Assembly: GCA_018399715.1 (NCBI GenBank)
Contig: JAGYNR010000001.1
Location: forward strand, 8,128 to 72,127
Source of the DNA: Desulfobacterales bacterium
GTDB taxonomy: Bacteria; Desulfobacterota; Desulfobacteria; Desulfobacterales; SKZT01
Reading direction: 5' to 3'
Length of the DNA stretch: 64,000 nucleotides
The notes under the pieces: generated by a model
Told to the model about the DNA's origin: nothing
Database searches by the model: none
What the model saw: the letters and a program-made list of their open reading frames with translations, nothing else
Made by a program: the position numbers and the translations under genes
Shown: piece by piece, positions 7,152 to 31,276 of the stretch
Position numbering within the stretch: the first letter of the stretch is position 1
Layout: each line of letters starts with the position of its first letter

Positions 7152-7769
7152 TTATCCTTCATTTTCATATAATCTATAGTAATCAATTACCTTTTGCACA
7201 TACCTTTGGGTTTCCGAATATGGTGGAATGCTTCCGTATCGATCTACGGCGGAGGGGCCTGCATTGTATGCCGCAAGAGATAGCAATATATCGCCGTTAT
7301 ATCGCTGGAGCATATTTTTTAGATACCGGGCACCCCCCATTATATTTTGCAATGGATCAAAAGGGTCATTGATAGACAATAAATTGAAATTTTGCGGCAT
7401 GATCTGCATTAAACCGATTGCGCCTTTTTTGGATATGGCATCACAATTAAAATTCGATTCAACCTTGATAATCGCTTTGATCAAATTGCAGGAAAGATTA
7501 TAGTGAGTAGACGCCTGAATAATATATTCATTGATTTTTTCAATATTAAAATAAGTTGAATCCGTACTTCCGATTTCTTCCAGGTACGGTTTATAATTTA
7601 AAGGCTTTCCTGCGGTTGCAACGGGTGTATTGGTAAAATGAACCACCCCGTCTTTGTCTACATATCTGAATATTTCCGCTCCCCCTGTTATGGGACTGCA
7701 AAAACTTAAAAAACATATCAGCAAAAAATAGTTTTTTGCGCTCAATACATTCATCCTTGAAATAATCAT
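7152..7769 (-). CDS. lytic transglycosylase (DUF4124-like N-terminus plus SLT domain)
   Basis: IFRYVDKDGVVHFTNTP (DUF4124-like). SLT block KVESNFNCDAISKKGAIGLMQIMP and AAYNAG. Confidence 0.8.
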   Translation of the reverse strand: MIISRMNVLSAKNYFLLICFLSFCSPITGGAEIFRYVDKDGVVHFTNTPVATAGKPLNYKPYLEEIGSTDSTYFNIEKINEYIIQASTHYNLSCNLIKAIIKVESNFNCDAISKKGAIGLMQIMPQNFNLLSINDPFDPLQNIMGGARYLKNMLQRYNGDILLSLAAYNAGPSAVDRYGSIPPYSETQRYVQKVIDYYRLYENEG

Positions 7770-10700
7770 TAAAACATCTGAAGCTGAACCTGACTATTTT
7801 GGGTCTTGTTTTTTACATTCATTTTCTCGTAAAATCTCAGACATTGTTCGATTTGACCTACGAAAGGAGACAACTTTCTGTTTACAATTTTTCCATATAT
7901 CTGTCGTCTGTGAGACCAGGTTAAAAAAAGATACTCCATGGCCCGGGTCATGGCTACATAAAAAAGGCGGCGTTCCTCATCTATATCCTGGCAAATACCG
8001 GCATCATGGTTATATGGAATCAACTCATCTTCGCAACCCGCTATAAATACTACCGGAAACTCTAATCCCTTAGACGCATGCATTGTCATCAATGCAACTC
8101 TTTCGGCTTTTGGGATATAAACATCAGGATCGGTCTGTAATGCTGCCATAGACAAAAATTTACAAATATTCTGACCAAACTCCATGGAAAAATCAAGAAT
8201 TTTATTCAACGCTTTTTGGGAGGAATCATTGGTATTTTCCAGAGATCTGCTGATATAATGGTCAACCAGTATTTCTAATTTTTTACGGACAGTCACAGCA
8301 TCTTTGCACTTTTCTTTCATCCGTTGTATATCGGCCATGGTAAAGGTGACCAACTTCTTCCGGTCTGGTAAGGTCGCCATATTTTCGACTATTCGTAGCA
8401 TTGAAATGACTTCAACGACACTTTTCGTGCTAAAAACATGTTTTTTGGCCACCAGTTGATAAGGAATTCCTCGTCGCCTGAAAGCATCCGCTAACACTTC
8501 TCCTTGTTTTCGTGTTCTGAAAAGAACAGCAAAATCAGAAAAACCTTTATCCCGATGTTCATTGCTAACCTGAATTCTTCCGGAATCGATACTATAAAAA
8601 TCTGCTCCGCCCATAAGTTTTTCCACCTGCCGGGCGATAGTTTCCGCTTCGGCTTTTTCAGAGATGGTTTCAATGATCCTGACAGTTGATATACTTTTTA
8701 TGGTAGAAAAAAGTTGTTCAGATGAAAATTCTGATCTTGATTTTTCAATAACCTGGTAAGATGCCTTTAAAATCGTTTGGGAAGACCGGTAGTTTCTTTT
8801 AAGACGGATAATTTCGGCATCCGGATAATCATTCAGCAATTGTTGAAAATACATAATATCCGAACCTCTGAATCCATATATTGCCTGGTCGGGATCACCA
8901 ATAACGCAAAGCTTAGAACTTTCATCAGCTAGTAAATTCTTTGTCTCACCCGGTACCATTGCCTTGATAAACCGGTACTGGGCCTTATTCAAATCCTGAT
9001 ATTCATCCACAAAAATATACTGAAATTGATCCTGATACGTTTTCAAAAAAGCAGAATCGGACTCAAAGCGCTTAACCACGTTGGTGATCAAGTCTTCAAA
9101 ATCCCAAAGTTTTTCGGATGCTAACCGTTTCTGATAAACATCAAAAACGGTTTTAATGACATCTCCGGTAAATTGGGCGGGGAACTCAATATTTTGTTTT
9201 GCCGCTACAATTTTATCCAATATGACCTGCGGTTTCTCTTTAATATGAATTCCCTCGGACAACAAGCCGTTGATCGCTTCCTGAACATAAAATATCCGAT
9301 CCTCATCATTTAAAACCGAAAAACCTTCATATTCGGGTAATTTTTGTAACATATGGATACAAACCGAATGAAAGGTTCCTACAAACGGCAGTTGTTTTAC
9401 ATTATTTCCCAATAAACGGGTAAGGCGATCTTTCATTTCAGAGGCGGCTTTATTTGTAAACGTTACCGCCAGGATTTTTTCCGGTATCACCTGTTTTTCC
9501 CGGATCAAATGGACAATTTTGTACGTTAAGGTTCTTGTTTTTCCGGTTCCGGGTCCGGCTACAATCAAAAGAACCCTTCCCAAATGATAAACGGCATGAC
9601 GCTGCTCTTCATTAAGGCATTCGGTTTTTCTGTTTTCGGAATCTTTCCCGGTATGTTTTTTCATGGGTTTTGCCGGAGACGTTTTTGGGAGGAATATTTC
9701 CGGTTCATCTGTTTTTCGTGTTACGCGGTTTTCTTTTTGAACAAAGATATCATCCTGGGAGAATACAAAAAGAGATTTTTGGGCAGTGAGTATCTCGCGT
9801 TCCCCGTCTTTAAAAATTTTTACTTTTCCGTATTCTCCGTCATAACCAGGATGTATAAAAACTTTGTTTTCCCGCATACGCTCTACTGCTACTTTTAACA
9901 GCGGAACATTGATGTTATCCAAAGCTTCAGACGGTATCTGATATAAAACTTTAAGTTCGGGTCCGCCTTTGGAAATAACGACGTGATATGCCTCTTCAAC
10001 TTTTTTGCTTTTTGGTCCGACCCGGAAGATTTCTGAAAGGATATCAACAAGCGGAACAATACTGATATAGGTATTTGAATATTTCGGTTTGATACCCTCA
10101 CAACGGTCAGACAACGCATTGATCCGGTAAAGCACGCCGAGTGTCAAAGGTTTTCCGCACACCGGGCAAATGCCATTATTAAGACAGGTTTGTTCGGGAT
10201 TAAAACAGATGCCGCATTTACGATGTCCGTCATAATGATATTTACCTTCTTGGGGATAAAATTCAAGGGTTCCTATAAACTTTTCAGGATCACCCGTCTT
10301 CATGGCATCAATGATGGAAAAATAATCTAAACCTGTATTGAACAAGTTAGCTTCTCTTCCCAAATTTGCCGGTGAATGGGCATCGGAATTGGAGACCAGC
10401 GTTAAATTATCGAGACTTGATATTCTCCAGTTCATCGCAGGATCGGATGACAGACCGGTTTCAACAGCGGTTATATAAGATGTCAAATCTTCAAAACACT
10501 CCCGGATAGAATCAAAACCTGATTTGGAACCTAATACAGAAAACCAGGGTGTCCAGATATGGGCAGGGATGAAAAAACCATGCTCAGATGTATCCAGCAT
10601 TATTTCCAGTAAATCTCTTGAGTCTAATCCCAATATGGGTCTTCCATCTGAGGCAATGTTTCCGATAGCTGAAAGTTTCGCAGAAAAATCAGAAACCGCT

Positions 10701-11050
10701 TTTAAATCAGGAAAAAAAATCAGGTTATGAACCTTACGGGTTTTTCCGTTTTTTTTATAAATATTGCTGATTTCAGTTGTCAAAATAAACCGGACATCGT
10801 TTCTGCATACGCTGGGTACCAGTTTATCACATGATTTTGCTATATCCGGTTTTAAGCGAAACAGCCCTTGTTCTGCCGGAACCAGTTTTTCCCGAATTTC
10901 CTCAAACCATTCGGGATGCGTAAAATCACCCGTTCCCACAACGGTGATACCTTTTTTCTGAGCTGATATATAAAGATTTTCTAGGTCCAGATTTTTGGCA
11001 GTTGCCCGCGAAAATTTAGAATGAACATGAAAATCCCCAATAAATCTCAT
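7769..11050 (-). CDS. EndoQ-like PHP/Zn-finger endonuclease fused to a UvrD/PcrA-type SF1 helicase
   Basis: N-terminal part: DFHVHSKFSRA, GTGDFTHPEW, PAHIWTPW, SNSDAHSPANLGREAN, a Cys4 finger and PGYDGEYGKVKIF. C-terminal part: AGPGTGKT, AVTFTNKAA, DEYQD, GDPDQAIYGFRG, MHASKGLEFPVVF and YVAMTRA. The likely start is ATG 11048-11050 with an AAGGA SD. The ORF is open to 11101. Confidence 0.8.
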   Translation of the reverse strand: MRFIGDFHVHSKFSRATAKNLDLENLYISAQKKGITVVGTGDFTHPEWFEEIREKLVPAEQGLFRLKPDIAKSCDKLVPSVCRNDVRFILTTEISNIYKKNGKTRKVHNLIFFPDLKAVSDFSAKLSAIGNIASDGRPILGLDSRDLLEIMLDTSEHGFFIPAHIWTPWFSVLGSKSGFDSIRECFEDLTSYITAVETGLSSDPAMNWRISSLDNLTLVSNSDAHSPANLGREANLFNTGLDYFSIIDAMKTGDPEKFIGTLEFYPQEGKYHYDGHRKCGICFNPEQTCLNNGICPVCGKPLTLGVLYRINALSDRCEGIKPKYSNTYISIVPLVDILSEIFRVGPKSKKVEEAYHVVISKGGPELKVLYQIPSEALDNINVPLLKVAVERMRENKVFIHPGYDGEYGKVKIFKDGEREILTAQKSLFVFSQDDIFVQKENRVTRKTDEPEIFLPKTSPAKPMKKHTGKDSENRKTECLNEEQRHAVYHLGRVLLIVAGPGTGKTRTLTYKIVHLIREKQVIPEKILAVTFTNKAASEMKDRLTRLLGNNVKQLPFVGTFHSVCIHMLQKLPEYEGFSVLNDEDRIFYVQEAINGLLSEGIHIKEKPQVILDKIVAAKQNIEFPAQFTGDVIKTVFDVYQKRLASEKLWDFEDLITNVVKRFESDSAFLKTYQDQFQYIFVDEYQDLNKAQYRFIKAMVPGETKNLLADESSKLCVIGDPDQAIYGFRGSDIMYFQQLLNDYPDAEIIRLKRNYRSSQTILKASYQVIEKSRSEFSSEQLFSTIKSISTVRIIETISEKAEAETIARQVEKLMGGADFYSIDSGRIQVSNEHRDKGFSDFAVLFRTRKQGEVLADAFRRRGIPYQLVAKKHVFSTKSVVEVISMLRIVENMATLPDRKKLVTFTMADIQRMKEKCKDAVTVRKKLEILVDHYISRSLENTNDSSQKALNKILDFSMEFGQNICKFLSMAALQTDPDVYIPKAERVALMTMHASKGLEFPVVFIAGCEDELIPYNHDAGICQDIDEERRLFYVAMTRAMEYLFLTWSHRRQIYGKIVNRKLSPFVGQIEQCLRFYEKMNVKNKTQNSQVQLQMF

Positions 11051-11109
11051 CACTTGTCCTTTATGGATATCCACTGTTAATAACAATGGGAAGTTGTTCA
11101 ATTAACTCT

Positions 11110-11377: not shown

Positions 11378-14005
11378 TTAGGCTTCGATTACTATCCCCT
11401 TCCTTAAACCTGAAAACCATTGGTCGTATAAAACCGGCGTAAGAAGATCGAACATGTAATGCTGCCGGGCATCCGGGCGGTATTTTTTGGAAATATCAGC
11501 GATATTCACCGTTTTTAATCGCTGGTTTACCTTTTTAAAGTGTGCCTTGGCGTATTCGGCCTTGGCCGGGGTGGATTCGTCCTGGTCGTCATCCGACTTG
11601 ATTTCTACCACCCGGATCAGATATTCGATGCCCTCGTCCTGAAAATTTCTCAACGTCTCAATGTGGTTATTTTGTCCTTTGGTGATCAGTTTTAACAGGT
11701 AATTATCCAAATGTATTTTAATAAAAAAATCCGGGTTAAATCCCCGGCGTGTTCTGTCTTTACCGCCTCGCCAGAATTCGTAGTCTATGCTGTAAAATCC
11801 CTTGTCCGGGGATTTAATCCAGGCATCGATATAATCCGCGTGATCGATTAACTGAAAAACAAATTCCCTTTCCGGGGTATGCGACACTAAAACGATGTAT
11901 TGCGGGTTTTTAAGTCTGGACGCGTTGACCACATAGGGGGATCGTTCATCGTTTTCCACCAATGATCGGATAATATCCGGATGTGCTGTAATAAAAGGAT
12001 CTGCATCAAACATCGGAAGCATGAGTTGTTTACCTTGTTGTTGGGTGCCTCGCCATTCACTCAAAAATTCCAGAACTGTTTTGTTGTCATCAGAAAGTTC
12101 GGTTTCATAATCTTCACTCAAAAATGCGGTGGCATCTTTATCCAGTTCACTTAACCGCAGACTGTGTTTATCCATATCGCATGTTGCTGTGGGTATAAGG
12201 TTACCCTCAATATTTTCAAAAATCCGTTTTTTGGTTCCCGGCGGCAAAAACTGGTTAAAATAATTTTCGATTTGTTTTTTGTTTTCCAGGGAAAGCCGGT
12301 TGCCTGTTATATCAACCGTTTCCATGGCTTTTTGGATGACGGCCTTGATATCTTCCTCGGTCGGATACCGATCGGCAACGATCACCTCGCCAAAGTCAAG
12401 ATGACCGGCCCGAAATAGTTCGGGATTTATCAGGGGCCTTGAGGAAATATACATGTCACTCTGGGTTACTGCGTCGACCAGTTCTTTGATATGATCGGCA
12501 AAACGGTCATGATTGGTCACGGTCAGACAGGGATATGTTTGATGAATATGAGCGCTGGGAATATTTCGGGGAATCCGCAACCCACGGCCCAGTACCTGGG
12601 ATATGAGAAGCTTGGATTTAAACACCCGCTCTTCCATGGGCACAATCTGAAAAACATTGTCCACATCCCAACCTTCGGACAGCTTGTTGACGGCGAATAT
12701 GTACTCTACAGAACCACCTGTTTTTTGGGGGTTAATTTCTTCAATATGTTCCAGTTGCTCCTTATATTCAGATTCTGAAATGCGGCTGACCACGCAGATC
12801 ACCTTTTGTCGCATCTGGCCAGTAATTTCAGAATCCGTGCCGGTCGCGCCCTTATGCTTCTTTTCGTAATCAGCCAAAAATTTGATAAACGCTTCACTTC
12901 TGTCTTGAGCGTTTTTCTGGGTAGGGCAGATAAATATCGTGACCGGCTTGACCTGCCGTTTGCCTCTTAACCGGTAGGCGTATTTTTTCCGGTTATCCAG
13001 GTGGTTTTTCAGAACAATCTCAAACCGCTGATCAATTGTCAGGGGCTTATCGCCTTCATCGGTCCGGGTACGCACATTGTTGTTGATGTCCTTGATGTAT
13101 TTCTGATTAATGGCATCTTTGATGGAATAGTTGTAGATGATATCGGCAAAATATTCATCCTTGTTATAAGGCGTGCCAGTAAAGCCGATATGCCGGGTAA
13201 TCTTCTTGTTTCTTCTTAAAAACTGCATCCACAAGCGTTCTTCTTTTTCAGCAGTTCGCTTACCTTCGACCGTTTCATCCTTGTCCATGACCAATTGATT
13301 TTGTGAAAATTGTAAATGGGAATAGGCATGATGGATTTCATCGCCCAGCACCAGCACTTCGTCTGTGTTTTTAAACAGGGTATCGGTAATCGAGCCAAAC
13401 GTGTAAACCGCGTTGATATTTTCAATAACGATGGAATCGTCTTCAATGGGATCGTTGTCGTTTAAGATGTTAATGGCTTTACCCCGATATTTCATTGGCA
13501 GCTCTTCCATCAGGCTTTTATCGGTCATCAGGTCTTTAAACTTTTCCCGAAGGCCCTGTTCGATAATAGTTGAAGCCGGCCCCAACACCAGAACCCGGCG
13601 GGTTAGTCCCATCACCAAAAAAAGATATGCCACGGCAAAAATCACGTAAGACTTGCCAGTGCCGGTAGCCATGTGCACAACGCCGGACAACCGGTCCGGT
13701 AAGGGTAAATGGTTTACCAACATTTTTTGACTGCTGAACCGCTGCTGAATCCGGGGCTTCACGTAATTATCTTTAGCTAAATCGACAATGGTTTTATAGG
13801 CACCACCCCAGAGATAGATCATGACCTGCTTAATGGCCTGCTTCTGGTATTCCCGCGTTCCGGTTAATTGGTCTACATAATCTTCAATCTCCGAAAAATT
13901 GAATTTGTTGTAGTTACACCGCCGGATATTGATGTCCAGGGTGTGTTCGGACAAGTTCATCTTTTTAACGACCGATTTTTTCTTTTTCTGTCTGGACATG
14001 AGCAT
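11378..14005 (-). CDS. res: Type III restriction endonuclease, Res subunit (SF2 helicase-nuclease)
   Basis: Walker A MATGTGKSY and DEAH-like LGDEIHHAY. Size is 875 aa. The start ATG overlaps the extended mod frame as TAATG. Confidence 0.8.
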   Translation of the reverse strand: MLMSRQKKKKSVVKKMNLSEHTLDINIRRCNYNKFNFSEIEDYVDQLTGTREYQKQAIKQVMIYLWGGAYKTIVDLAKDNYVKPRIQQRFSSQKMLVNHLPLPDRLSGVVHMATGTGKSYVIFAVAYLFLVMGLTRRVLVLGPASTIIEQGLREKFKDLMTDKSLMEELPMKYRGKAINILNDNDPIEDDSIVIENINAVYTFGSITDTLFKNTDEVLVLGDEIHHAYSHLQFSQNQLVMDKDETVEGKRTAEKEERLWMQFLRRNKKITRHIGFTGTPYNKDEYFADIIYNYSIKDAINQKYIKDINNNVRTRTDEGDKPLTIDQRFEIVLKNHLDNRKKYAYRLRGKRQVKPVTIFICPTQKNAQDRSEAFIKFLADYEKKHKGATGTDSEITGQMRQKVICVVSRISESEYKEQLEHIEEINPQKTGGSVEYIFAVNKLSEGWDVDNVFQIVPMEERVFKSKLLISQVLGRGLRIPRNIPSAHIHQTYPCLTVTNHDRFADHIKELVDAVTQSDMYISSRPLINPELFRAGHLDFGEVIVADRYPTEEDIKAVIQKAMETVDITGNRLSLENKKQIENYFNQFLPPGTKKRIFENIEGNLIPTATCDMDKHSLRLSELDKDATAFLSEDYETELSDDNKTVLEFLSEWRGTQQQGKQLMLPMFDADPFITAHPDIIRSLVENDERSPYVVNASRLKNPQYIVLVSHTPEREFVFQLIDHADYIDAWIKSPDKGFYSIDYEFWRGGKDRTRRGFNPDFFIKIHLDNYLLKLITKGQNNHIETLRNFQDEGIEYLIRVVEIKSDDDQDESTPAKAEYAKAHFKKVNQRLKTVNIADISKKYRPDARQHYMFDLLTPVLYDQWFSGLRKGIVIEA

Positions 14006-14133
14006 TAATCTTTAAGAATAAAAGGGTTGCTTTCATTTCCGTGCTTGTCGATGGCAATTACTGCCACACTGTTGGTTAATCCGGAAATTTTGATTTCCTG
14101 GTTTTGGTTGATATCCCTGGCAAAGACTGTTTT

Positions 14134-16065
14134 TTACATATCAAAAATGTTGTTGTCATAATTTACATCTACCAGCAACATGGCCAGACCTTCCAGGCCG
14201 TTAAATTTTTCACCGTTTCGATTTAAAATACCGGTTTTAAATTTTGTAATCTTTAAGCCCTCCTTGATTTTTTTGACGGCAATCTCAACCTCATCGTTAA
14301 AATAAAAACCGGTAGCGTTGATCAGGTGATTGACATTCTCCTGGGAGTTGGGCTGTTCGGTAATCTGAAAATTGCGGGAGACCTCCTCTAAAACTTTATA
14401 GGGAAACTTTAGCAGCTTAAAGTGAACTTCCTTGCCGCTATCGTTTTTCAGGATGGTATCACCGATGACGGTACAGGTCTCCGGTGTGATAATGTAATAG
14501 TCACCTCTTAATTTACCGCCGGACTGAATCAGGATCTGTTTTAAATAATCTTCGTCGATGCGGATGTCTTTCAGGTATTCATCTTCCCAGACCGGGTATA
14601 CCTCCACCGGGTGCCCGTCCTTTTCCCCGTAGATATTGACCAGTTTGTACTTGCCGTTGAGGTTTTTCGAGTCCCGGGGCAGTTGAAACAGGCCCAGCAC
14701 AAAATTGATGTACGCATCCTTGTTTTCCCGCAGGTTTATGATACGGGAAAAGTCATAGGCCCCGCAGGAGACCACGCAAAACGGTTGAGGGCCTTTGCCG
14801 TATTTTTTATTGGCGCGAACATTTTTATTCAGGTCTTTTGATTCTCCAATGCGCAGGATGCGTTTTTGCATGGTGTAAATGGCATGCTTGCCGAAATCAC
14901 AAACTATCCAGCGACGCCCCAGCTTTTCCGCCACTGCCGCCGTGGTGCCGGAACCGGCAAACACATCCATTACCAAGTCGCCGGGATTGGATGAGGCGCG
15001 AATGATACGTTCAAGAAGGGCTTCTGGTTTTTGGGTGGGGTAATCAACTCTTTCTTTCGCTTGTGAATTAATATAATTGATTTCCCAAACATCAGGGGCA
15101 ATAGTTTTTGTTATATCAATTACAACTTTTCGAGCAAATTCATTAATATCAATTCTGCCTTCTTGTATTGCTGCATCAACTTTTTCTTTGTTATAAATAA
15201 TTAGTTGGGGCTGCCTTTTCCCATTTATATATACAGAATTTCTATCCCAACCCTTTTCATGTTTCTTTCTTTGTCCTTCTGTCGGTTCAATATGTACTTT
15301 ATTTAGATTATATTGATGTGTTTTTGAATACCAGAGAATTGAATCGTGCATATTTTGAAATGAATCGCTTGCAGCCGTCCATCTTCGGTAAAACCAAACT
15401 ATATCATTTCGAAAATTATTTTTTCCGAATACTTCGTCTAAAATCACTTTTATATAATGGCTCATTTTATAATCCAGATGGACATAAATACTTCCGTCTT
15501 CCGCCAAGATATTTCTCAATAAAATCAGTCGCTCTCTTACGCCTTCGATAAACTCGGCTGCTACCACCTTGTCTGAATAACTCTTTTCATCCCCCGCCCC
15601 GCCAAAATCACTCTTGGTCGCAAACGGCGGATCAATATAAACCAGCTTGACCTTGCCTTTAACCTTGTCCTTGATCAGGGGGTCCTGGTTCTGAAAGCAG
15701 GTTTTTAAGAACTGAAGGTTATCGCCCTGAACGATCAGGTTCACCCAGTCGGTCTTTGATTTGTTCAGAAAGTCCAGGAGTTCGAGCTGGGTATGGCCGG
15801 AGAGGCTCCCCTCGTTGAAAAATCGCTCGGCCTGCAACGGCGAGCCGCTTTCCATGGCAAAAGTCTGGTTTAAAATAGCGGCATCACTGCGTTTGCCCGC
15901 ATATTCCAGGGTAGCTATTTTGGCTTTATCCAGGATAGCCACATCATATTTCTCCGCCACATGGGGAAAAAGCTTGGGCATCAGCTCCGGGGGCGGTTCG
16001 GTGCTTTCGTTGATGGCTTCCATAATCTGCTGTTTTTCTTCATCGGTCAGGTTTGTCTTTGCCAT
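14134..16065 (-). CDS. mod: Type III DNA methyltransferase, Mod subunit (beta-class N6A/N4C MTase), apparently truncated by an in-frame TAA
   Basis: Motif [16 protein letters not shown] comes before motif [25 protein letters not shown]. The same frame continues for 42 sense codons after the TAA (14134-14136), down to a TAA at 14005-14007. Confidence 0.8.
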
Positions 16066-16251
16066 TATTGCTCTCCGGGTTTCATAAAATTCGGGCCTGT
16101 AAAAACCGTATTCATCTTCATCTGGTTTAGGGCAGTGATAATTGCGTTTTATTTTTTATCGGCCCAATATAAATCTTTTAATATCAAACTATTAGAATTA
16201 TTGCATTAGGTCACGATTGGGCATTTTGCGTTTTATCGGCCCAATACGACC

Positions 16252-16815
16252 TTAATTTTTCGGATACCATAAGGCGGCCCTGGTAGCACCGATATGGTAG
16301 ATCTTTCCATCGCTTTTAAGTTCAGCAACCAGCTTTTTTACCTGGTTGTCGGACAGAAACGGTAACACCTGCATGAGCTCCTTGAACCGGCTGCCGGATT
16401 CTTTGTTATCTTGTATGTGTTTCATCAGCAAAGCCTTGTTCGTTTCCCGGTCCAGCCCTTTTTTGCGAGTGTAAGCGCCTTTTTGACCGGTCATTTTATA
16501 ATATCCTCGTCCCAGCATATAGCGGACACCACGACCCCGACCGTATCGTTCGATAATGCCCATGGAAACCAGTCGTTGAAGTCTGGATTTGAGTGAATCC
16601 GGTATGGGTTGACTCCGGTGAATCAGGTCCAGTAACAAAAAATCTTCGGTTCCGAAAAGCTCTAGTCTTTCCCTACCCACTTTTTCCAGAAACTGAAGAA
16701 AACGAACATCCTGAACCTCGCCGTTTAAGGTTAACGTCACCTGATAGGCGTCCGTTCCCGTAAAATCCGGAATGGATTTACCTTCCTGGATGCTTAACTC
16801 AAACATCAGGTTCAT
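16252..16815 (-). pseudogene. COG2865 RecG-like ATP-binding/transcriptional regulator, C-terminal fragment (wHTH)
   Basis: It continues the 16819-17337 ORF in the same frame across one TAG. The junction reads ...GLVERSG * G MNLMFELSIQEG..., matching the family pattern ER.GsGi.rm. Confidence 0.6.
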
Positions 16816-16818
16816 GCC

Positions 16819-17337
16819 CTAGCCGGAACGCTCCACCAGCCCGCATTTGGAGAAGATATCGGCCACACGGCGGTTGCGCGGGGCCTGGCGGTTTAAGATG
16901 TTATGCTCATTGATTCCCGGCGGAAACCCGCCGGGACTTTCAATCACCAGACGGCGAGGGTACTGACGAACAAAAATATTGCCGGGATGCCGGTAGTCCC
17001 GGTGACTGACGGCATTCAAAACGGCCTCGCGGACGGGCCGTTCGGAAAAGGTGGGAATATCCTCGATAAACAGACCTGTCTGGAAATGCTGCAAGTCGTT
17101 GCGAAGGTTGATGATATCCCACAACTGGTCGTAGAAACTGAAAAACCCCTGCCGGAACTCTACCCGCTGCTGAGCCGGACCGGAGGCATCTGAAGACCGG
17201 TATTCAAATACCACTTCCGCCCGGGCAAGATGACGGCCCATGGCCGCATGGGTGCCGAACAGAATCAGAGCGGCATAGGTCGGCCTGCCATCTGCCATGG
17301 CTTCAATATCATTTAAAAATGGTACGTTCCGTTTCAT
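16819..17337 (-). pseudogene. COG2865 RecG-like ATP-binding protein, HATPase_c_4-like fragment lacking the N-terminal AlbA_2 domain
   Basis: TYAALILFG, REAVLNAVSHRDYRHPGNIFVRQYPRRLVIESPGGFPPG and RNRRVADIFSKCGLVERSG. Visibly more GC-rich than its neighbours. Confidence 0.6.
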
Positions 17338-18506
17338 TAGCGGCTAAAAGCCTGTGTCAACAACTGGTCAAGTACATTAACTTCGGACTGCCCCGGTTGT
17401 TCCGGCCTCAGGTTGAACTTGTTTATCCGCAGGAACCGGTAACCGTAACTTTCCAGCTCTATCTGGCGTCTGATGTCATAGTCGAGGTATTCGGCGGAAA
17501 AATTGTGCTTGGTGACAGTGTCCGGGTTTTTCGTGTGAAATTCCACACCATCATACTCCAGAATCAGGGCTTGTTCCCGCCCATTTCGGGCAAGAGTCAG
17601 CAGAAAATCTATACGGTATCGGGGAATCTGTTTATGGTATTTCGTCCGTATATATTCACCAATATTAAATTGGGGCACGATCTTGAGATTTTCCCGGTGT
17701 GTTTCCACAAACCGTGTATTTATCAGCAACTGATAAAGGCGCTCTTCAGCCGGAGACTCAAAAACAGACGGGTCTTCTACAAAAAAATCGTTCTTTTTCG
17801 TGGTTTCAAGAAGCGCATGGTAGTGCTTCAAGGCATCTCCCAGGCGTGAGTGGCTGTAATCGCTGATCTGCATATTGTGAACAAATACCATGGTGTCTTT
17901 AGCTCTGCTGAACCCAACATTTAAGCGCTGCATTTTCAGGCTGCGAGTAGTGTCGGCCGTTCCACCGATCACAGGATAAATGGTTCTCAAATCCGCATTG
18001 ACATATTTTTTATCTTCCACAAAAGAATAATAAACTATATCGCGCTCTTCGCCCTGAACATCACCTACAAACCAAACTGCCAGGTTGTGGTTTCGTTTGA
18101 GTTCCGGCAGATTCATTTTTTCGTTGATGGCCTGCTCCATTCGGAGCTGCTGTTCCTTAAACGACGTAATAATGCCGATAGAGCCTGTAAAACCGTTGGA
18201 GATCCTGGTATTAAAATCTTCAATGATGGCGTCGATTTCATCAAGATTAACGTTGCGGCCTGAATCGCCCCTGGTTTCAACCCGAATAAACTGAAGCACC
18301 TGGATGACGGGCCGGGTACGAATCCGATTAACCGTCAGTTCAAGCTGGGCCGACTGGTAAAAAAATGTATTGGAATAGTCGATAATTTCCGAAAAGCTGC
18401 GGTAATGGTCCCGTAAAGAAGTAGTGTAGTTGGCGATGGCTTTGGCAAAACTCAGGGTAGAGGTACGTATTTTGACTGTCACGTGCCAGGAGTTGCAGTA
18501 TGTCAA
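17337..18506 (-). pseudogene. SF1 helicase C-terminal (AAA_12-like) plus DUF559/Vsr-like endonuclease domain, remnant
   Basis: GDVQGEERDIVYYS and RLNVGFSRAKDTMVFV (helicase motifs V/VI). C-terminal YRIDFLL...LILEYDGVEFH. No Walker A anywhere upstream. It overlaps the next ORF in another frame. Confidence 0.6.
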
Positions 18507-18945
18507 ACTGCTGTTTTAAAAAATGGGTGCTGTTGAAAATTGATGCAGGGACTATAGAAAGTCCCAGTTGGGCTTTTAACCGACCTATTTTCTGATCCTG
18601 TTGATCAATCAATATCTGTTCAAGTTGCTTTCGAAGAGCCAGGTTGTATTTTCGAGTCCCCTCCTGAAAAGCTTTTGTCTTTTGCTGTTGTTTTCTTTCA
18701 AAATCCAATGGGTCATCTTGTAACGCTACCTGGATTTCCTGATCAGATGCAATAAGTACCTTATCTGCTTTAACAATAGCGACAAGTTCCTGTTCAACGC
18801 ATGTTTGTAAATAACCCGGACCGAATTTATCAGAAAGCGCTTTCTCGATATCTAAAAGCACATCGTCTTTTAGCAGCGTTATTGTATGCTCATGTGACTT
18901 TATCACAACGGGTTTATTATCGCCTGCTTTAATTTTTGCCAGCAA
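18340..18945 (-). pseudogene. upstream fragment of the same helicase-nuclease gene (frameshifted, N-terminally truncated)
   Basis: It overlaps 17337-18506 by 167 nt in a different frame. Its own frame is closed by a stop at about 18970. No ATPase motifs. Confidence 0.45.
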
Positions 18946-19628
18946 CTGTTCCTGGAATTTTTGAAATAATCATAGGTCAAAAGAAAACTCATCATCAGTC
19001 CAGCAATAATTGACAAGTGTTTTAAAATTGAATTTTGTTTCCGTAAATGCGGCAAAGTAATTTAGGATGGTAACTGGAAGCTTTTTTGAGTTTGACCGCA
19101 TATGCTTTTCGTTTTTTTTCTATTATTGGGATAACAATGATATGTTGGCACCATCTTTTGTTCTATACAACGTAAATATATCCTGATTTTTGCTTAACTT
19201 AAAGGATATCCTGTTTGTAAACATGAGAAAAATGGCAATGTTTAGATTAAATCTTGTTAATAACATCACACTTATAAACAAAATTTAGATTTTGGTCAAA
19301 AAGTCAAATCATATCCACAATTAATATATAGATGATTAACAGTTGCAGAGAAATGAATGGGAAATAAAATCAAGTAATTAGAGAATTGATAGAGATATAA
19401 ACAACGTATAATATTAATAATATTATATAAATATAAAATAATTATTTAATGTTATAATATCCACAGACGACATACTGTACGGAAAAAAATCTTGTTTACC
19501 TTTATAAAACAGTATATAGTAATTTGATTATCATTTTGATCCTGTTATGGTAGTTTTGAAATCTTAACTGATATCAGATGACATAATTTTGTATATAAAT
19601 CAAGTTATCGAAAGTTTTAAATATCAAT
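18946..19628. other. candidate replication-origin (oriC-like) AT-rich region at a coding-strand switch
   Basis: It is a 680-bp non-coding AT-rich spacer. All genes from 3840 to 18945 are on the minus strand and all from 19629 to 25063 are on the plus strand. ATATCCACA occurs at 19311-19319 and 19457-19465 (8/9 to TTATCCACA). dnaN-gyrB lie immediately downstream. Confidence 0.4.
19248..19443. repeat. AT-rich imperfect direct repeat, right copy (partner at 11110-11305)
   Basis: See the left copy. The offset between copies is 8138 bp throughout the aligned blocks. Confidence 0.75.
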
Positions 19629-20240
19629 ATGGGGCTCTTATCTACATCTGTTTCTATCACACAATACCAGGTAAAAGGAACACTTGAATCTGTTCTAGAT
19701 ACTGTAGGAAAAGGATTGAAAAAAAACAGTATACAGGAAATCGATGATGATGTGTCAGACAGTGCTATTGGATGGACTTCCATTGATCATCCGTTTAAGC
19801 CTGATTTTGAAACATCATCATTTATTTTCGGTATTTATCTGGTTTTCTCATTGAGAATTGACAAAAAAAGTATTCCCGTAAAGGTGTTAAATAAATATTG
19901 TGCATTAGAAGCTGACAAAATGTTGTCTGAAAATGGACGAAACTATTTGAATCGAAATGAAAAACGAATGATCAAAGATCGGGTATATACACAGCTTTTG
20001 AAACGCTATCCGGCAACACCGAGTATTTATGATGTCATATGGAATTATGAAGCGGGAACGTTATGGTTTTTTTCAAATCAAAAAAGGCCAAATGAAGAGC
20101 TGGAAACACTTTTCTCAAAATCTTTCCATTTAAATCTGATCCGGATTTTTCCATTTACTGCAGCGGATTTGACAATGGATCTGAAGGAAAAAGAACGGGA
20201 TATATTGATTCAATTGTCGCCCACACAATTTTCGGAGTAG
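19629..20240 (+). CDS. RdgC-like recombination-associated protein, N-terminal-half homologue
   Basis: It aligns by eye to about the first 175 residues of E. coli RdgC: GW..., KKSIPVKVL, LNRNEKRMIKDRVYTQLLKR, WNYEAGTLWFFSNQKRPNEELETLFSKSF. Confidence 0.55.
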   Translation: MGLLSTSVSITQYQVKGTLESVLDTVGKGLKKNSIQEIDDDVSDSAIGWTSIDHPFKPDFETSSFIFGIYLVFSLRIDKKSIPVKVLNKYCALEADKMLSENGRNYLNRNEKRMIKDRVYTQLLKRYPATPSIYDVIWNYEAGTLWFFSNQKRPNEELETLFSKSFHLNLIRIFPFTAADLTMDLKEKERDILIQLSPTQFSE

Positions 20241-20245
20241 GTGTT

Positions 20246-20770
20246 ATGCTCGATGTTTCAGTGTCTTATAACCGCTACAAATTTCTTGGACATGAATTTT
20301 TAACATGGCTTTGGTTTCTGACAGAAAATCAAAGGGATTTTATTCATGAAAAAGTGGCTGACTTGACATCACTGGAAATTGGCAATCGGGTTGTTTTGGA
20401 AAACCGTTTTAAAGATACTTTGGAGACCATAACGATCAAAGGCGATGATGCTGGTTTAGAGGAAGGAATTCTATCATTAAAAAAAGGGGCGGTAGTAACC
20501 GAGTTAAATTTAACCTATACGTTTGACGAGTTGGAATGGCAGTTTTCATTGAAAGGTGAAAGCCTTGCCATTTCAGGATTAAAAACACCGGCAACATTGC
20601 CTGTAAACAATACAGAGGATATTGAAGAAGTTGTTTTAGAAAAAGTAATGCATTACGAAAAAATGATTGATTTTATCAACATAATTTTTCGTGAGTTTAT
20701 TAACAAAAGAATATCTGAAGATTGGGAACAAACGGTTGTTCCTGAAATCAGAAAATGGATTACGAAATAA
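20246..20770 (+). CDS. RdgC-like protein, C-terminal-half homologue
   Basis: FLTWLW, ITIKGDD..LEEGILSLKKGAVVTELNLTY..WQFSLKGESLAISGLK and a terminal acidic/helical part parallel RdgC residues from about 175 to 300. It has its own ATG with a GGAG 8 nt upstream. Confidence 0.5.
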   Translation: MLDVSVSYNRYKFLGHEFLTWLWFLTENQRDFIHEKVADLTSLEIGNRVVLENRFKDTLETITIKGDDAGLEEGILSLKKGAVVTELNLTYTFDELEWQFSLKGESLAISGLKTPATLPVNNTEDIEEVVLEKVMHYEKMIDFINIIFREFINKRISEDWEQTVVPEIRKWITK

Positions 20771-20847: not shown

Positions 20848-24395
<3,548 letters not shown>

Positions 24396-24403
24396 GCTAA
24401 CTG

Positions 24404-25063
24404 ATGTTAAACTTGATATCCATTACGGCAAGAGATATACCGGATGCCTGGTTTCAGTGTGTATATAATATTATTGATAACGGGTATGAATACACGATTG
24501 AAAGGGGCAGTTTTGAAGGGCAGAAAAGATTAGAGTTTGATTATTGCACTATTCAAATCAAATATCCGGGTGTCAGGCCTTTACTTCCGGATATTCCACC
24601 GGCGCTGGGAATTCCGAATCCGGTTGCCGAAGGATATATAGAGGAATACCTGCCCTATTTGATGACATCCAAAAAACATCCCAATGAGGATTATACTTAC
24701 GGTGAGTATCTGGAAAGTCAAATTGCTGAAGTTATCCGAATATACAAAGAAGACGGCTACGGTACCAACCAGGCGTATATGACCGTTGGAGATCCTACCA
24801 CTTTGTATTTAAAAGACCCGCCGTGTCTAAGGGGAATAGATACCAGAATTCGGTATGAAAAACTTCACTTTATTGTCTATTTCAGGTCATGGGATTTATG
24901 GAATGGTTTTCCGGCAAATCTGGGGGCTATTCAGCTTTTAAAAGAATACATGGCCGATGAAATCGGAGTAAAAGACGGAGAAATTATTGCTGCCAGCAAG
25001 GGGCTTCATCTTTATGACTATATCTGGGAGTTGGCGAAATTAAGGACCATGAAAGATTCATAG
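24404..25063 (+). CDS. thymidylate synthase family protein, short archaeal-type (219 aa)
   Basis: DPPCL (catalytic Cys context), YFRSWDLWNGFPANLGAIQLL and GLHLYDY parallel ThyA motifs PPCH, RS.D...G.PFN and H.Y. Confidence 0.6.
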   Translation: MLNLISITARDIPDAWFQCVYNIIDNGYEYTIERGSFEGQKRLEFDYCTIQIKYPGVRPLLPDIPPALGIPNPVAEGYIEEYLPYLMTSKKHPNEDYTYGEYLESQIAEVIRIYKEDGYGTNQAYMTVGDPTTLYLKDPPCLRGIDTRIRYEKLHFIVYFRSWDLWNGFPANLGAIQLLKEYMADEIGVKDGEIIAASKGLHLYDYIWELAKLRTMKDS

Positions 25064-28037: not shown

Positions 28038-29660
28038 TTAATCAAATAGTCTTATGCCGCGGCGTTCTAAAAGGCTTCCTTCAGCGAGATAAAGCTCTGT
28101 TAACGCAATTCGGTAATTAACGATTGCTTCTACCTCGGAGATTTGGCTGGCTAACAGATCCCGTTGGGCCTGTGCCACCAAAAGAGATGTACCGGCACCC
28201 ACAGCAAAACGATCCTGCTCCGCACGGAGGGTTTCTTCCTGAAGCTGACGGGTTGCTGTGGAAGCTGTAATTTGTTGCCTGGCTCTTTCCACCTCATTTA
28301 CCGCCAGCCTGACATCTATGCATACCATTTGTTCAAGATTGGAAAGAGCTGCGCTTTCCTGACGTACAGATGCTTTGGCTGCATGATCGCGGGCCTTGGC
28401 CGCACGATTTCCCAGGAAATGATTCAAACGAAATCCCACCTCAAAATCATATGTGTCGCTATCCAGCTCATGAAAAGATTTTGAAAAAGAATCTGCATAA
28501 CCACTGTACCCCAGGGCTATAAATAAGTCGAGACGGGGCAGCAGGCCATTTCGGGTGACCATTGTTTCCAGACGATTTTGATGTATAAGAAGCCGGGTTT
28601 CCTCCAAATCCGGACGGGATTTTAAAGCAAGTTGAAGTCGTTCACGGATATCCGTGATGTGCCGGGGTGTCACCTGAAGCTCACTGGTAGCATTTAGGGG
28701 ACAATCCAGACCCATTCCCGTCGGATAAATCAACCGAAGCAGTTTAAACCGATTGTCAAGTGCCAGACTCCGGGCGTTGATCAGTGCCTGCTTCCGCAAA
28801 GCCACTTCCGCCCGTGTCGCAGCAGCCTCGATTTCAGGGTATAATCCTACGGTGATCCGCTCTTCGACTTCATCCCGCTGTTTTTGGGCCAGTGCCAGCG
28901 ATTGTTCAAAGATATCAATTTCTTTTTTTGCCAGCACGTATTTCCAATAAGCTGTTTCTGCCTTTGCCAGAAGTGCTTCCGTAAACCCGCGCAATTGATG
29001 AACACTGGCTATGGTATCCAGTTCCGCCTGCCGCACACCCGCCAGGTTGGCTGCTGGCCCGAAGCCCTTCAGAAGAGACTGGACCAAACTTAGCCCAATG
29101 CGACTGACCTGTTGTTCCGGAGTACGGTTAGAAACAGAGCGATTTTGACCTACCGTCATTTCCAAATTGGTTCCGCTGGGTAGAAATTGACGAATACCTG
29201 CCTGATAAGTCGTGTCACTGCCTTCCACATCGAAACGGGTACCCGTTGAACGGGCGGTTTCAGAGGATTTTTCTTTAAAATATTCAACTTCCCCGAATAG
29301 TTCCGGGTCATAAATTCCCCGTTCTATATCCTCAAAGCTTCCCTTTATCACCGGATTAAACTGTTCCACTTTAAGTTCCTGATTATTTTTAAGCGCCAGC
29401 ATTACTGCCTGTTCAACCGAAAGATCGAGTATTTTTTCAGTTGATTTTTCCGGCAAAGTAGGTAATTCAGGCATTATTTCAAACCGGGTTTGAAGTTGGT
29501 TTACTGAATCAATGCCCGAAAATTGATTATCTCCGGCGAGTCGGCTGTCCTCAGGAGTAAAAACCGGCCAGCGGTCCGGCGTGATACACCCACCGATGCC
29601 GGTCAGTATTACGGGATAAATCAAAAACAGGATAAATTTAGGTAAAAACTGATTTATCAA
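28038..29660 (-). CDS. TolC-family outer membrane efflux protein
   Basis: 540 aa with two coiled-coil repeats typical of OEP/TolC. It overlaps the stop of the RND gene by 4 nt. Confidence 0.75.
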
Positions 29661-31276
29661 TGTTTCATCTCTTCTTTGGTTTGATTATCTCTTTTTGATG
29701 GGTGACGATGTTGCCGGTGAAACACAGAATACACGGCCGGAATGAGCACCAGGGTAATGACAGTTGACCCGGTAAGCCCGCCGATAACCACCCGCGCCAG
29801 CGGAGCCTGAGCATCAGCCCCTTCACCGATACCCAGTGACAGCGGCAAAAGTCCCAGTATGGTGGTCGTAGTGGTCATCAGGATAGGACGTAATCGGCGC
29901 CGCCCGGCCTCGGCAACGGCATTGTTTATGGTCATTTTTTTCCGGCGGAGCTGATCGGCCTGATCCACCAATAAAATTGCATTGTTGACCACAATACCGC
30001 CCAACATGATACACCCGATATACGACTGCACATTCAGCGTCGTATGCGTTATAAACAACGTGATCAGAACCCCTGCTGCCGCCAGCGGAACAGAAAACAT
30101 GACAATCACGGGATTTCGTAAGGATTCATATTGGCAGGCCAGAACCATGTATACCAGCACCAGCGCCAATAACAGTGAAACAAAAAGCTCCCGAAACGAT
30201 TTCTGCTGCTCTTCAAAATTGCCCGCCACAACCAGATTATACCCCATTGGATGGGGAATTTGGTTGAGCAACGCCTGCACATCCGTTGCCACAGACCCCA
30301 GGTCGCGTCCTGCCACATTGGCCTTAACAGTTACCAGCCGCTGTTGGTCCTTACGATCAATCAGAATCGGGCCTCGGCTGGCCTGGGTGCTCACCAGGTT
30401 CCGCAACATCACGGGTTCACCTGAAGCTGTCGTCAGTGTGAGGTCGAGAATTTCATCCAGAGATCTTTTTTCTGCATTGGCAAGCTGAACAAAAATCCGA
30501 TAGGAATCCCCCTCTGTGCGGTATTCTCCGGCCTGGGAACCTGCCACAGCCGTTTCAATAATTTCTGTTACATCCCGTACGCTCAATCCCATATCCGCCA
30601 CTTTGGGACGATCCACGCGGATTTCCTGCTGAGGAATACCTGCGCGTCGGCTGATTTGGATATCGGTGATGCCGGGGACACTGGAAATAGTGTTTGCCAC
30701 CCGTTTAGACAAATATTCAAGGGTATCGAGGTCAAAACCCCGGATATCAATGGTTACGCCTTCTTCTCCCCCTAAAATCCGTTCCAGGATAAACTGACCC
30801 TGAGGCGCCCGGGTTCGGATATCCATCCCGGCGATACGTCCGGCCAGAAGGTTACGAAGGTCTCCTGCAATTTCCATGTTGGAACGGTTTCTTTCAGACG
30901 ATGGTACCAAAGACATGCGAATTTCACCCTGAGAAACCTGTTCCGACCATCCCCCTGATGTTCCGGCTGTTGCAACCATGGAAACAGCTTCAGGCACTGC
31001 TGCACTGACAATTTCTTCCATTTTTCGGGTTTGCCGGTCTATCAGGTCAAGACGTGTGCCGATTTCCATCTCACCGGTAACAAGCACTTCGCCTTCATCA
31101 CTGGGCGGAAGAAATTCAGTGCCGATCATCGGTATGAGCAAAAGACTTGCTCCCAAAAGACCACCGGCAACAGATATGGTTAAAAACCGGTGATTTAAAA
31201 CCCGATAGATCAACCCATGGTAGGCGTTATTGAAACTATCAAAGAAAGTCCTCGATATTCCGGCCATCCTGCCCAT
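29657..31276 (-). CDS. RND (HAE1-type) efflux permease, C-terminal half (TM7-12)
   Basis: It is in the same frame as 31295-32779, separated from it by TAA plus 6 sense codons. It aligns to the second half of AcrB-type pumps (FLPPSDEG after TM7). Confidence 0.7.

Follow-up and report, generated by a model that had tools for sequence, protein, structure and literature searches.

A long bacterial EndoQ fused to a UvrD/PcrA-type helicase beside dnaN and gyrB in a Desulfobacterales genome

Introduction

The stretch of Desulfobacterales DNA analysed here, the window (64,000 nucleotides of contig JAGYNR010000001.1), carries on its minus strand a gene whose single reading frame joins an Endonuclease Q (EndoQ)-like nuclease to a UvrD/PcrA-type helicase, and this gene adjoins a restriction island. 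The locus raises the question of what this protein, which we call EndoQ-UvrD, is and what it does in the cell. It could be an artefact of two merged genes, a weapon against foreign DNA, a helicase with a passenger nuclease, or a repair enzyme that nicks and then unwinds. Our analysis indicates that EndoQ-UvrD is very probably an active EndoQ joined to an active superfamily 1A (SF1A) helicase, and a member of the long bacterial EndoQ family. With moderate confidence, based on homology and motifs, we read it as a housekeeping enzyme of a clamp-coupled pathway that would nick and then unwind DNA at deoxyuridine (dU), deoxyinosine (dI) and apurinic/apyrimidinic (AP) sites.

EndoQ cuts immediately 5' of dU, dI, deoxyxanthosine (dX) and AP sites, leaving a 3'-OH and a 5'-phosphate (EndoQ discovery paper), and it stays bound to the nicked product (Miyazono et al. 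2018). EndoQ repair has been defined biochemically only as far as this nick. The later removal of the lesion is drawn as a hypothetical helicase or flap step, and the helicase-dependent version downstream of EndoQ was drawn by the discoverers of the enzyme. The EndoQ papers call bacterial homologs rare, naming 'Bacillus and Desulfovibrio'.

A single gene with two conserved modules

The open reading frame (ORF) runs without interruption over 7769..11101 on the minus strand, with TTG at 11101 as its mechanical start. Since the family alignment and consensus begin at the ATG at 11050 (MRFIGDFHVH...), which has an AAGGA ribosome-binding site upstream, we favour this codon as the start, and the product is thus 1,093 amino acids (aa) long. 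For a near-identical relative, the start called by JGI is a GTG, the equivalent of 11074. A reading of 7769-11101 on the plus strand was rejected because it contains stops throughout. The gene and its parts are as follows.

7769..11050, minus strand: EndoQ-UvrD fusion gene; 1,093 codons plus a TAA stop (7769-7771), coding part 7772-11050
aa 1-416, minus strand: full EndoQ module with three domains (PHP-type, Zn-binding, C-terminal helical)
10256..11050 (aa 1-265), minus strand: PHP-type catalytic domain of the EndoQ module, aligned to the EndoQ of Pyrococcus furiosus (PfuEndoQ)
10061..10255 (aa 266-330), minus strand: Zn-binding domain, delimited by alignment to PfuEndoQ and by family conservation
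9803..10060 (aa 331-416), minus strand: EndoQ C-terminal helical domain, ending in PGYDGEYGKVKIF and aligned up to Pfu residue 384
9620..9802 (aa 417-477), minus strand: linker, poorly conserved except for QKSLF; aa 427-477 predicted disordered
9767..9781 (aa 424-428), minus strand: linker motif QKSLF, which fits the beta-clamp-binding type QL[SD]LF
7823..9619 (aa 478-1076), minus strand: SF1A helicase core, from domain matches, motifs and fold search
Motifs of the helicase core: Q LNEEQ, I AGPGTGKT, Ia TFTNKAA, II DEYQD, III GDPDQAIYGFRG, IV NYRS, VI YVAMTRA
7772..7822 (aa 1077-1093), minus strand: short tail, ending in QLQMF (7772-7786; aa 1089-1093)

The first-pass annotation, made from the sequence alone, had described an ORF at 7769-11101 that codes for an EndoQ-like nuclease with a Cys4 zinc finger, followed by a complete SF1A UvrD/PcrA helicase. 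The ORF is real and all the motifs quoted from it are found in its translation; its strand (minus), its start codon (ATG 11050) and its zinc ligands needed correction. Both module assignments are borne out by the comparisons below.

The N-terminal part gave significant profile, sequence and fold matches to EndoQ. A sequence search of the PDB aligned aa 4-414 end to end with PfuEndoQ (5zb8/7k30) at E 1.6e-48, and in Foldseek the AlphaFold model matched the same enzyme with a template modelling (TM) score of 0.83-0.84 and a root-mean-square deviation of 3.5 Å. The C-terminal helical domain is a confident part of this model (predicted local distance difference test, pLDDT, 85-94 over aa 331-416). 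The match to the NCBIfam model TIGR00375 spans model positions 3-374 of 374 and scores 165.8 bits against a curated cut-off of 326.6, a profile score that marks the protein as a homologous member of the EndoQ family and not as a TIGR00375 equivalog. The Pfam-A copy that we used had no model for the EndoQ part, so that only helicase domains are reported from it. The EndoQ call is based on NCBIfam, the PDB sequence search, the fold search and the precomputed PF27218 (MJ0043_C) matches that homologs of the fusion protein have.

The residues expected of an active EndoQ are kept. By alignment, H8, H10, E93, H108, H164, D223 and H225 correspond to the PfuEndoQ residues H8, H10, E76, H84, H139, D193 and H195, which are published as metal ligands (H195 in addition to the other six; Miyazono et al. 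2018). The lesion-pocket residues H164, G199 and S201, within the invariant ETGLSSD and PAHIWTPWFS blocks, correspond to Pfu H139, G169 and S171, a pocket that is reported to exclude T and A (EndoQ review). Alignments of 56 and of 121 family members show no change at any metal ligand or pocket residue. In the Zn-binding domain the conserved positions are H276, C279, C295 and C298, invariant in the family and with the same 3/16/3 spacing as Pfu C249/C252/C268/C271. C282, the second cysteine of 'CGIC', is present in the window protein and is often Arg or Ser in relatives. The ligand spacing of the Pfu C4 site is hence retained, its first ligand aligns as H276, and the conserved zinc site of the family is probably of the His-Cys3 and not the Cys4 type, with C282 as a further cysteine in the window protein.

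The helicase module is equally complete. Residues 477-1070 match PcrA, UvrD and Rep (1pjr, E 7e-84 in the PDB search), cover PF00580 from position 1 to 271 of 271 and also match PF13361; the family alignments show no variation in motifs Q, I, Ia, II, III, IV and VI. The 1A/1B/2A/2B four-subdomain fold is found by Foldseek at E ~1e-32 to 3pjr, 4c2t and 2is4 over ~660 columns. The core is closest to PcrA. The NCBIfam equivalog scores stand at 408.6 against a cut-off of 911 for PcrA, 301 against 1144 for UvrD and 345 against 951 for Rep.

Two regions set the module apart from these helicases. The 2B region (about aa 876-971) is shorter than in PcrA, and in the window protein it is also ~45 residues shorter than the family consensus. 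The alignment to PcrA stops near PcrA residue 642-652 of 724. Only ~25 residues follow the equivalent of PcrA residue 650, and both the PcrA alignment and the AlphaFold model thus show the window protein to be without the C-terminal Tudor-like domain found in PcrA/UvrD. The Tudor-like tail of UvrD/PcrA is the contact for RNA polymerase and UvrB.

The fusion is genuine and widespread

Two neighbouring genes merged by mis-assembly, a frameshift or a read-through call would give the same appearance, and a few truncated or split database entries (L027, L067, L073 and L079) could be taken to point this way. However, the ORF has no interruption, and Logan, JGI and NCBI data all contain ORFs of 1,093-1,101 aa with at least 90% identity: the Logan assemblies have a protein (P0121) of 1,093 aa that is 99% identical, and its 90% cluster also includes proteins from JGI (1,101 aa; contig of 154 kb) and NCBI (1,093 aa). 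Outside this cluster the nearest relatives have ~50-53% identity to the window protein. All 120 of the 120 best full-length matches are fusions, of 1,080-1,175 aa. The complete chromosome of Desulfonema magnum likewise has the fusion, in WP_207682410 (1,145 aa), labelled 'UvrD-helicase domain-containing protein' by NCBI and 'DNA 3'-5' helicase' by UniRef. An artefact thus has next to no probability, and the single polypeptide proposed in the first-pass annotation is present in independent assemblies.

When one genome per species was scanned, at least 592 species genomes proved to contain a relative of the EndoQ module; the top 80 were sorted into fused and stand-alone forms. In about 65 of the 80 the module is part of a single fused ORF of 1,032-1,214 aa, the shorter of these ORFs being truncated where a contig stops; represented are Desulfobacterales, Caldilineaceae, Pirellulaceae, Gemmatimonadetes, Rhodothermaceae, Spirochaetaceae and Binatia. 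EndoQ stands alone in about 10 genomes and lies next to a separate helicase gene in two (Planctomycetales), and two genomes have a break inside the helicase. Searched with the EndoQ module, 1.84 billion cluster representatives yielded 1,089 proteins at E <= 1e-30, each standing for a 50%-identity cluster. Of the best 150, ~130 have a length of 925 aa or more and carry the module at residues 1-430. By these counts the long form is far commoner in bacteria than the 'few bacteria' of the EndoQ literature, and the rarity implied by the first-pass annotation does not stand, also because long homologs were tabulated in 2016 (see below).

Matches of 420-520 aa could suggest that stand-alone EndoQ is the dominant form, but many of them are contig-end fragments or truncations, and the genome-based classification corrects this picture.

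Two variants of the architecture were observed. In the Planctomycetales, two metagenome-assembled genomes (L073, 2219-5007, and L079, 4731-7459) have an EndoQ of 433-438 aa adjacent to a compact, 483-aa UvrD-like helicase that is missing most of the 2B region and ends in QLKLF; this split pair is either a fission of the fusion or an ancestral operon form. In the Desulfobacterales, stand-alone EndoQs of 425-463 aa occupy the same syntenic slot as the fusion (L001 8001-9287, L054, L062, L063, L007 and L047). Most of them are without the linker clamp motif, which suggests secondary loss of the helicase and not an ancestral short form.

Relation to previously tabulated long homologs

Shiraishi et al. 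(2016, Sci Rep) stated that bacterial EndoQ homologs carry a beta-clamp-binding consensus at the C-terminus. Their Suppl. Fig. S1 gives short homologs of 405-464 aa, for example that of Thermodesulfatator with QKSLF at 421-425, and ~35 long bacterial homologs with QLxLF ending at residues 945-1,244. Among the long ones are Desulfobacter curvatus WP_020586011 (1,088 aa) and Desulfobacterium autotrophicum WP_015906045 (1,156 aa), and further entries come from Caldilinea aerophila, Rhodothermus marinus, Geobacter metallireducens, Zymomonas and Desulfovibrio vulgaris. The window protein shares with these proteins the length class, the taxa (Desulfobacterales, Caldilineae, Rhodothermaceae) and the C-terminal QLxLF; the accessible papers, however, never say helicase and give one clamp motif per protein. 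Miyazono et al. (2018), citing Shiraishi 2017, divide EndoQ proteins 'based on the domain organization' into three families, of which two are bacterial, and the long homologs are probably one of these two.

One source annotation reads 'Endonuclease Q ... / ATP-dependent DNA helicase UvrD/PcrA-like'. The supplement of a 2015 paper contains nothing relevant, and in a 2025 defence-discovery preprint PHP domains occur only in an unrelated system. The fusion architecture is therefore already on record, and the window protein belongs to a widespread, biochemically uncharacterised long EndoQ family. What our analysis adds is the second, linker-borne clamp-type motif, the probable His-Cys3 site, the missing Tudor tail and the shorter 2B region. 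The fusion as such will not surprise a repair specialist; its value lies not in a novel type of system but in pointing to a common enzyme that could settle the step after EndoQ.

Linker, tail and clamp-type motifs

The AlphaFold2 model, built from the 56-sequence alignment, has an overall pLDDT of 72 and a predicted TM score (pTM) of 0.47 and consists of two well-folded bodies. The pLDDT falls to ~30 in the linker (427-477) and to 35-49 in the tail (1077-1093). None of the top PDB fold matches returned by Foldseek spans both modules. The model places the two modules relative to each other without confidence and predicts no fixed interface between them; they are connected by a tether of ~50 residues that is predicted to be disordered.

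The two pentapeptides QKSLF in the linker and QLQMF at the C-terminus fit, by sequence, the QL[SD]LF type of beta-clamp-binding motif. Both lie in or border segments that are predicted to be disordered, QKSLF at the low-confidence start of the linker and QLQMF in the low-confidence tail. Of 121 close family members, 119 have a linker motif of the form Q[KQ]xLF, and so have 44 of 58 fusions taken from genomes across phyla (6% expected by chance); it lies 0-15 residues past the end of the EndoQ module. The motif is lost in the Desulfobacula/Desulfotignum clade, in Pirellulaceae and in Binatia. At least 53 of the 58 genome-derived fusions end in Q[LM]x[LM]F-COOH (0.4% in shuffles), as do nearly all of the 121 close members.

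The position of the linker motif is that of the C-terminal motif in short bacterial EndoQs and of the PIP (PCNA-interacting protein) box in archaeal EndoQ, and QKSLF is itself the C-terminal pentapeptide of short bacterial EndoQs tabulated in Shiraishi et al. (2016). Through its C-terminal PIP box, archaeal EndoQ binds PCNA with a dissociation constant (KD) of 55 nM, and the box is required for the stimulation of nicking by PCNA. At the split locus L073 the C-terminus of EndoQ is QQMVLF-COOH and that of the neighbouring helicase is QLKLF-COOH, so that each module comes with a motif of its own and both are retained in the fusion.

Genomic context and the restriction island

Does the neighbouring restriction island define the role of EndoQ-UvrD? 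The first-pass annotation had noted that the gene abuts the island and had considered a role against deaminated or dU-containing foreign DNA conceivable. In this reading, EndoQ would nick uracil-containing or deaminated DNA of an invader, and the helicase would unwind it or lay it open to degradation, in concert with the island. The gene does adjoin a Type III restriction-modification pair and the remnants of an AAA_12 helicase gene and a Schlafen/AlbA_2 gene. UvrD-like helicases are known in defence systems, and the helicase part matches GajB profiles. Moreover, a review says that bacterial EndoQ 'may participate in antiviral defense' and that Ugi, an inhibitor from phage PBS1, does not inhibit it.

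Comparison of the loci speaks against this. Neighbour clustering revealed a conserved slot in the Desulfobacterales, in which (a thymidylate-synthase-like gene,) gyrB, dnaN and a pair formed by a 174-aa ORF and an RdgC-like gene lie divergent from EndoQ-UvrD; downstream of the latter comes a DUF4124-SLT lytic transglycosylase gene. The part from gyrB to the transglycosylase gene recurs in about 25 loci. Most canonical loci have 27-670 bp between EndoQ-UvrD and RdgC or dnaN; the window has 8,528 bp. The six ORFs that fill this gap are missing from all of ~80 other loci and shared only with the near-identical relative (L084 1-9700, 94-99% DNA identity), where the island is intact. A more distant syntenic genome has a stand-alone EndoQ of 428 aa in the same slot and no island.

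In the relative the island comprises genes for an AAA_12 helicase (690 aa), a Schlafen/AlbA_2-HATPase_c_4 protein (539 aa), a Type III Mod (715 aa) and a Res (954 aa). Its counterpart in the window, ~8 kb on the minus strand at 11378-19101, is damaged: deletions of ~303 bp and ~551 bp disrupt the genes for the AAA_12 helicase and the Schlafen/AlbA_2 protein, and Res has an in-frame deletion of ~79 aa. In Mod, a segment of ~350-440 bp is replaced, possibly by a swap of the specificity domain. While the adjoining island decays, EndoQ-UvrD is intact and 98.5% identical to that of the relative. The adjacency is coincidental, and the island is a lineage-specific, decaying insertion.

Searches beyond the locus point in the same direction. 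With the EndoQ module as query, tblastn gave no match in 50,697 phage records and, among 72,556 plasmids, a single short EndoQ on a 733-kb megaplasmid. The PADLOC matches are to generic UvrD/GajB helicase profiles, with no GajA partner and nothing on the EndoQ part, and the clamp-binding-type motifs point to the host replisome. We consider a defence function quite improbable, and the suggestion drawn from the island is not upheld by the wider set of loci. EndoQ-UvrD behaves as a vertically conserved, chromosomal core repair gene in a slot beside dnaN and gyrB.

A possible nick-then-unwind mechanism

UvrD/PcrA unwinding starts at nicks made by other proteins, as in the pairs MutH/MutL-UvrD and RepD-PcrA. 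On this model, the EndoQ module of the fusion would recognise dU, dI/hypoxanthine and AP sites, nick immediately 5' of the lesion and remain on the nicked product. Tethered to it by a flexible linker of ~50 residues, the UvrD/PcrA-type 3'-5' helicase could then load at the nick, on the intact strand. Moving 3'-5', it would displace the downstream strand, whose 5' end bears the lesion, in the manner of PcrA at a RepD nick and of UvrD at a MutH nick. The DnaN beta-clamp, held by one or both QxxLF motifs, may bring the polymerase that extends the 3'-OH, after which a 5' flap nuclease or an exonuclease would remove the displaced flap and ligase would seal the strand.

The logic of nicking followed by unwinding had been put forward in the first-pass annotation; it is reasonable and plausible, and a helicase step after EndoQ had already been proposed by the discoverers of the enzyme. 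The occurrence of an EndoQ/UvrD-type fusion or adjacent pair in hundreds of bacterial species is 'Rosetta-stone' evidence for a helicase as the natural partner of EndoQ. We also count the adjacency of separate EndoQ and helicase genes in Planctomycetales, each with its own QxxLF, as a functional link between the modules. If correct, the clamp-coupled pathway would be the bacterial, beta-clamp-coupled counterpart of the PCNA-stimulated EndoQ repair in Thermococcales.

An alternative is that the protein serves as a general UvrD/PcrA-type accessory helicase, in nucleotide excision repair, mismatch repair or replication-transcription conflicts, and that EndoQ travels with it as a largely independent passenger without any hand-off, the fusion serving merely to express the two together or to bring both to the clamp. 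The complete helicase core, closest to PcrA, fits this idea, and so does a long disordered linker with no fixed interface predicted. Each module has its own clamp motif, the two can exist as separate genes, and the helicase can be lost while EndoQ stays. On the other side, the Tudor domain for RNA polymerase and UvrB is absent, the scores are far under the PcrA, UvrD and Rep equivalog cut-offs, and the preservation of fusion or adjacency across many phyla argues for functional coupling. We therefore regard the passenger arrangement as unlikely, though less so than a role in defence.

Several observations weigh against the nick-then-unwind pathway or limit how far it can be taken. Homology and motifs are the basis on which we infer the specificity of nicking, the polarity of the helicase, its loading at the nick and the binding to the clamp. 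Since TIGR00375 and the PcrA, UvrD and Rep equivalog models all score under their curated cut-offs, both modules are, by sequence, diverged paralogues and not orthologues of characterised enzymes. The AlphaFold model offers no confident inter-domain geometry at its pTM of 0.47. The close relatives L001, L054, L062 and L063 retain EndoQ only, in the same slot and with the helicase lost, so that the helicase is dispensable in some lineages. Because some clades are without the linker motif, bivalent clamp binding cannot be essential. The proximity to dnaN is not seen in other phyla and could be phylogenetic inertia within one order. Finally, no paper in the accessible literature characterises the long EndoQ form or names it a helicase fusion.

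A more specific version of the nick-then-unwind pathway can be offered as a tentative proposal: the long EndoQ family may be a self-contained, replisome-coupled 'nick-and-peel' excision machine, in which two beta-clamp motifs, one from each ancestral module, would let the protein travel with the DnaN ring or dock to it. It would nick 5' of dU, dI and AP sites, and its own helicase would remove the damaged strand so that clamp-dependent resynthesis could follow. To our knowledge, no direct beta-clamp client has been reported among UvrD/PcrA-type helicases, although no dedicated search was made. The proposal, if true, would provide such a client as well as the missing downstream step of EndoQ-initiated alternative excision repair.

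Comparison with known enzymes

The characterised EndoQs of Pyrococcus furiosus and Thermococcus kodakarensis (5zb8, 7k30) and the short EndoQ of Bacillus pumilus/subtilis have the same three domains, metal ligands and pocket residues as the window protein. A clamp motif directly after the helical domain is likewise common to them, as a PIP box in archaea and as QxxLF in the window protein. The window protein differs in its sequence (~30% identity), in a His for Cys exchange at the first zinc ligand and in its continuation into a 600-aa helicase. With PcrA, UvrD and Rep (1pjr, 3pjr, 2is4, 4c2t, 1uaa) it has all helicase motifs and the 1A/1B/2A/2B fold in common, whereas the missing Tudor domain, the shortened 2B region, the beta-clamp-type end and the N-terminal nuclease distinguish it from them.

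AddA, RecB and AdnB also combine a UvrD-like SF1A motor and a nuclease in one chain, and they gave weaker matches to the window protein. Their nuclease is a C-terminal PD-(D/E)XK domain, and they act as heteromers on double-strand ends and have partner genes. In contrast, the window protein has an N-terminal PHP-type domain, predicted to be a lesion-specific nickase, and no partner gene. EndoMS/NucS is another archaeal-type repair endonuclease, whose archaeal forms bind PCNA and whose actinobacterial forms bind the beta-clamp, and it follows the same logic of clamp-coupled incision. It has an unrelated fold, acts on mismatches, makes a double-strand cut and has no helicase.

Other genes of the slot and the window

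The DUF4124 and SLT lytic transglycosylase gene (7152-7769, minus strand) starts at a TAATG overlap with the stop of EndoQ-UvrD. An SLT gene lies 0-700 bp after EndoQ-UvrD in most of 22 Desulfobacterales loci, and 1,057 bp after it in one. A cell-wall enzyme next to a DNA-repair gene is an odd but conserved pairing.

The position upstream of dnaN (20848-21963 in the window), where dnaA is usually expected, is held here by the 174-aa ORF (20246-20770, plus strand; no Pfam match), which is just upstream of dnaN, and by a short RdgC-like protein (19629-20240, plus strand; 203 aa, weak PF04381 match); both occur at this place in about 25 loci. In four loci an ORF of ~500 aa is inserted ahead of dnaN. 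Directly after gyrB, at 24404-25063 on the plus strand, lies the thymidylate-synthase-like gene (219 aa), which matches PF00303 in its C-terminal half only (E 2.6e-8). Its syntenic homologs have 217-301 aa, mostly 220 or 263. The gene may be relevant to dU/dT metabolism.

An Rfam scan of the whole 64-kb window (1-64000) returned no family at gathering score. Between 7000 and 11500 we counted 10 promoter-like sites, fewer than the 14.3 +/- 3.4 in shuffles, and 7 terminator-like sites, slightly more than the 4.4 +/- 2.0 in shuffles; no inference was drawn from either count.

The remaining genes of the window are housekeeping genes for efflux pumps, carAB, glutamate synthase and glnE. One of the pumps, an AcrB-type resistance-nodulation-division (RND) transporter, is split into two ORFs on the minus strand (29657-31276 and 31295-32779), which match the profile over positions 3-494 and 505-1021 and are separated by 18 bp. 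It could be a pseudogene, the result of a sequencing error or a genuine two-piece pump.

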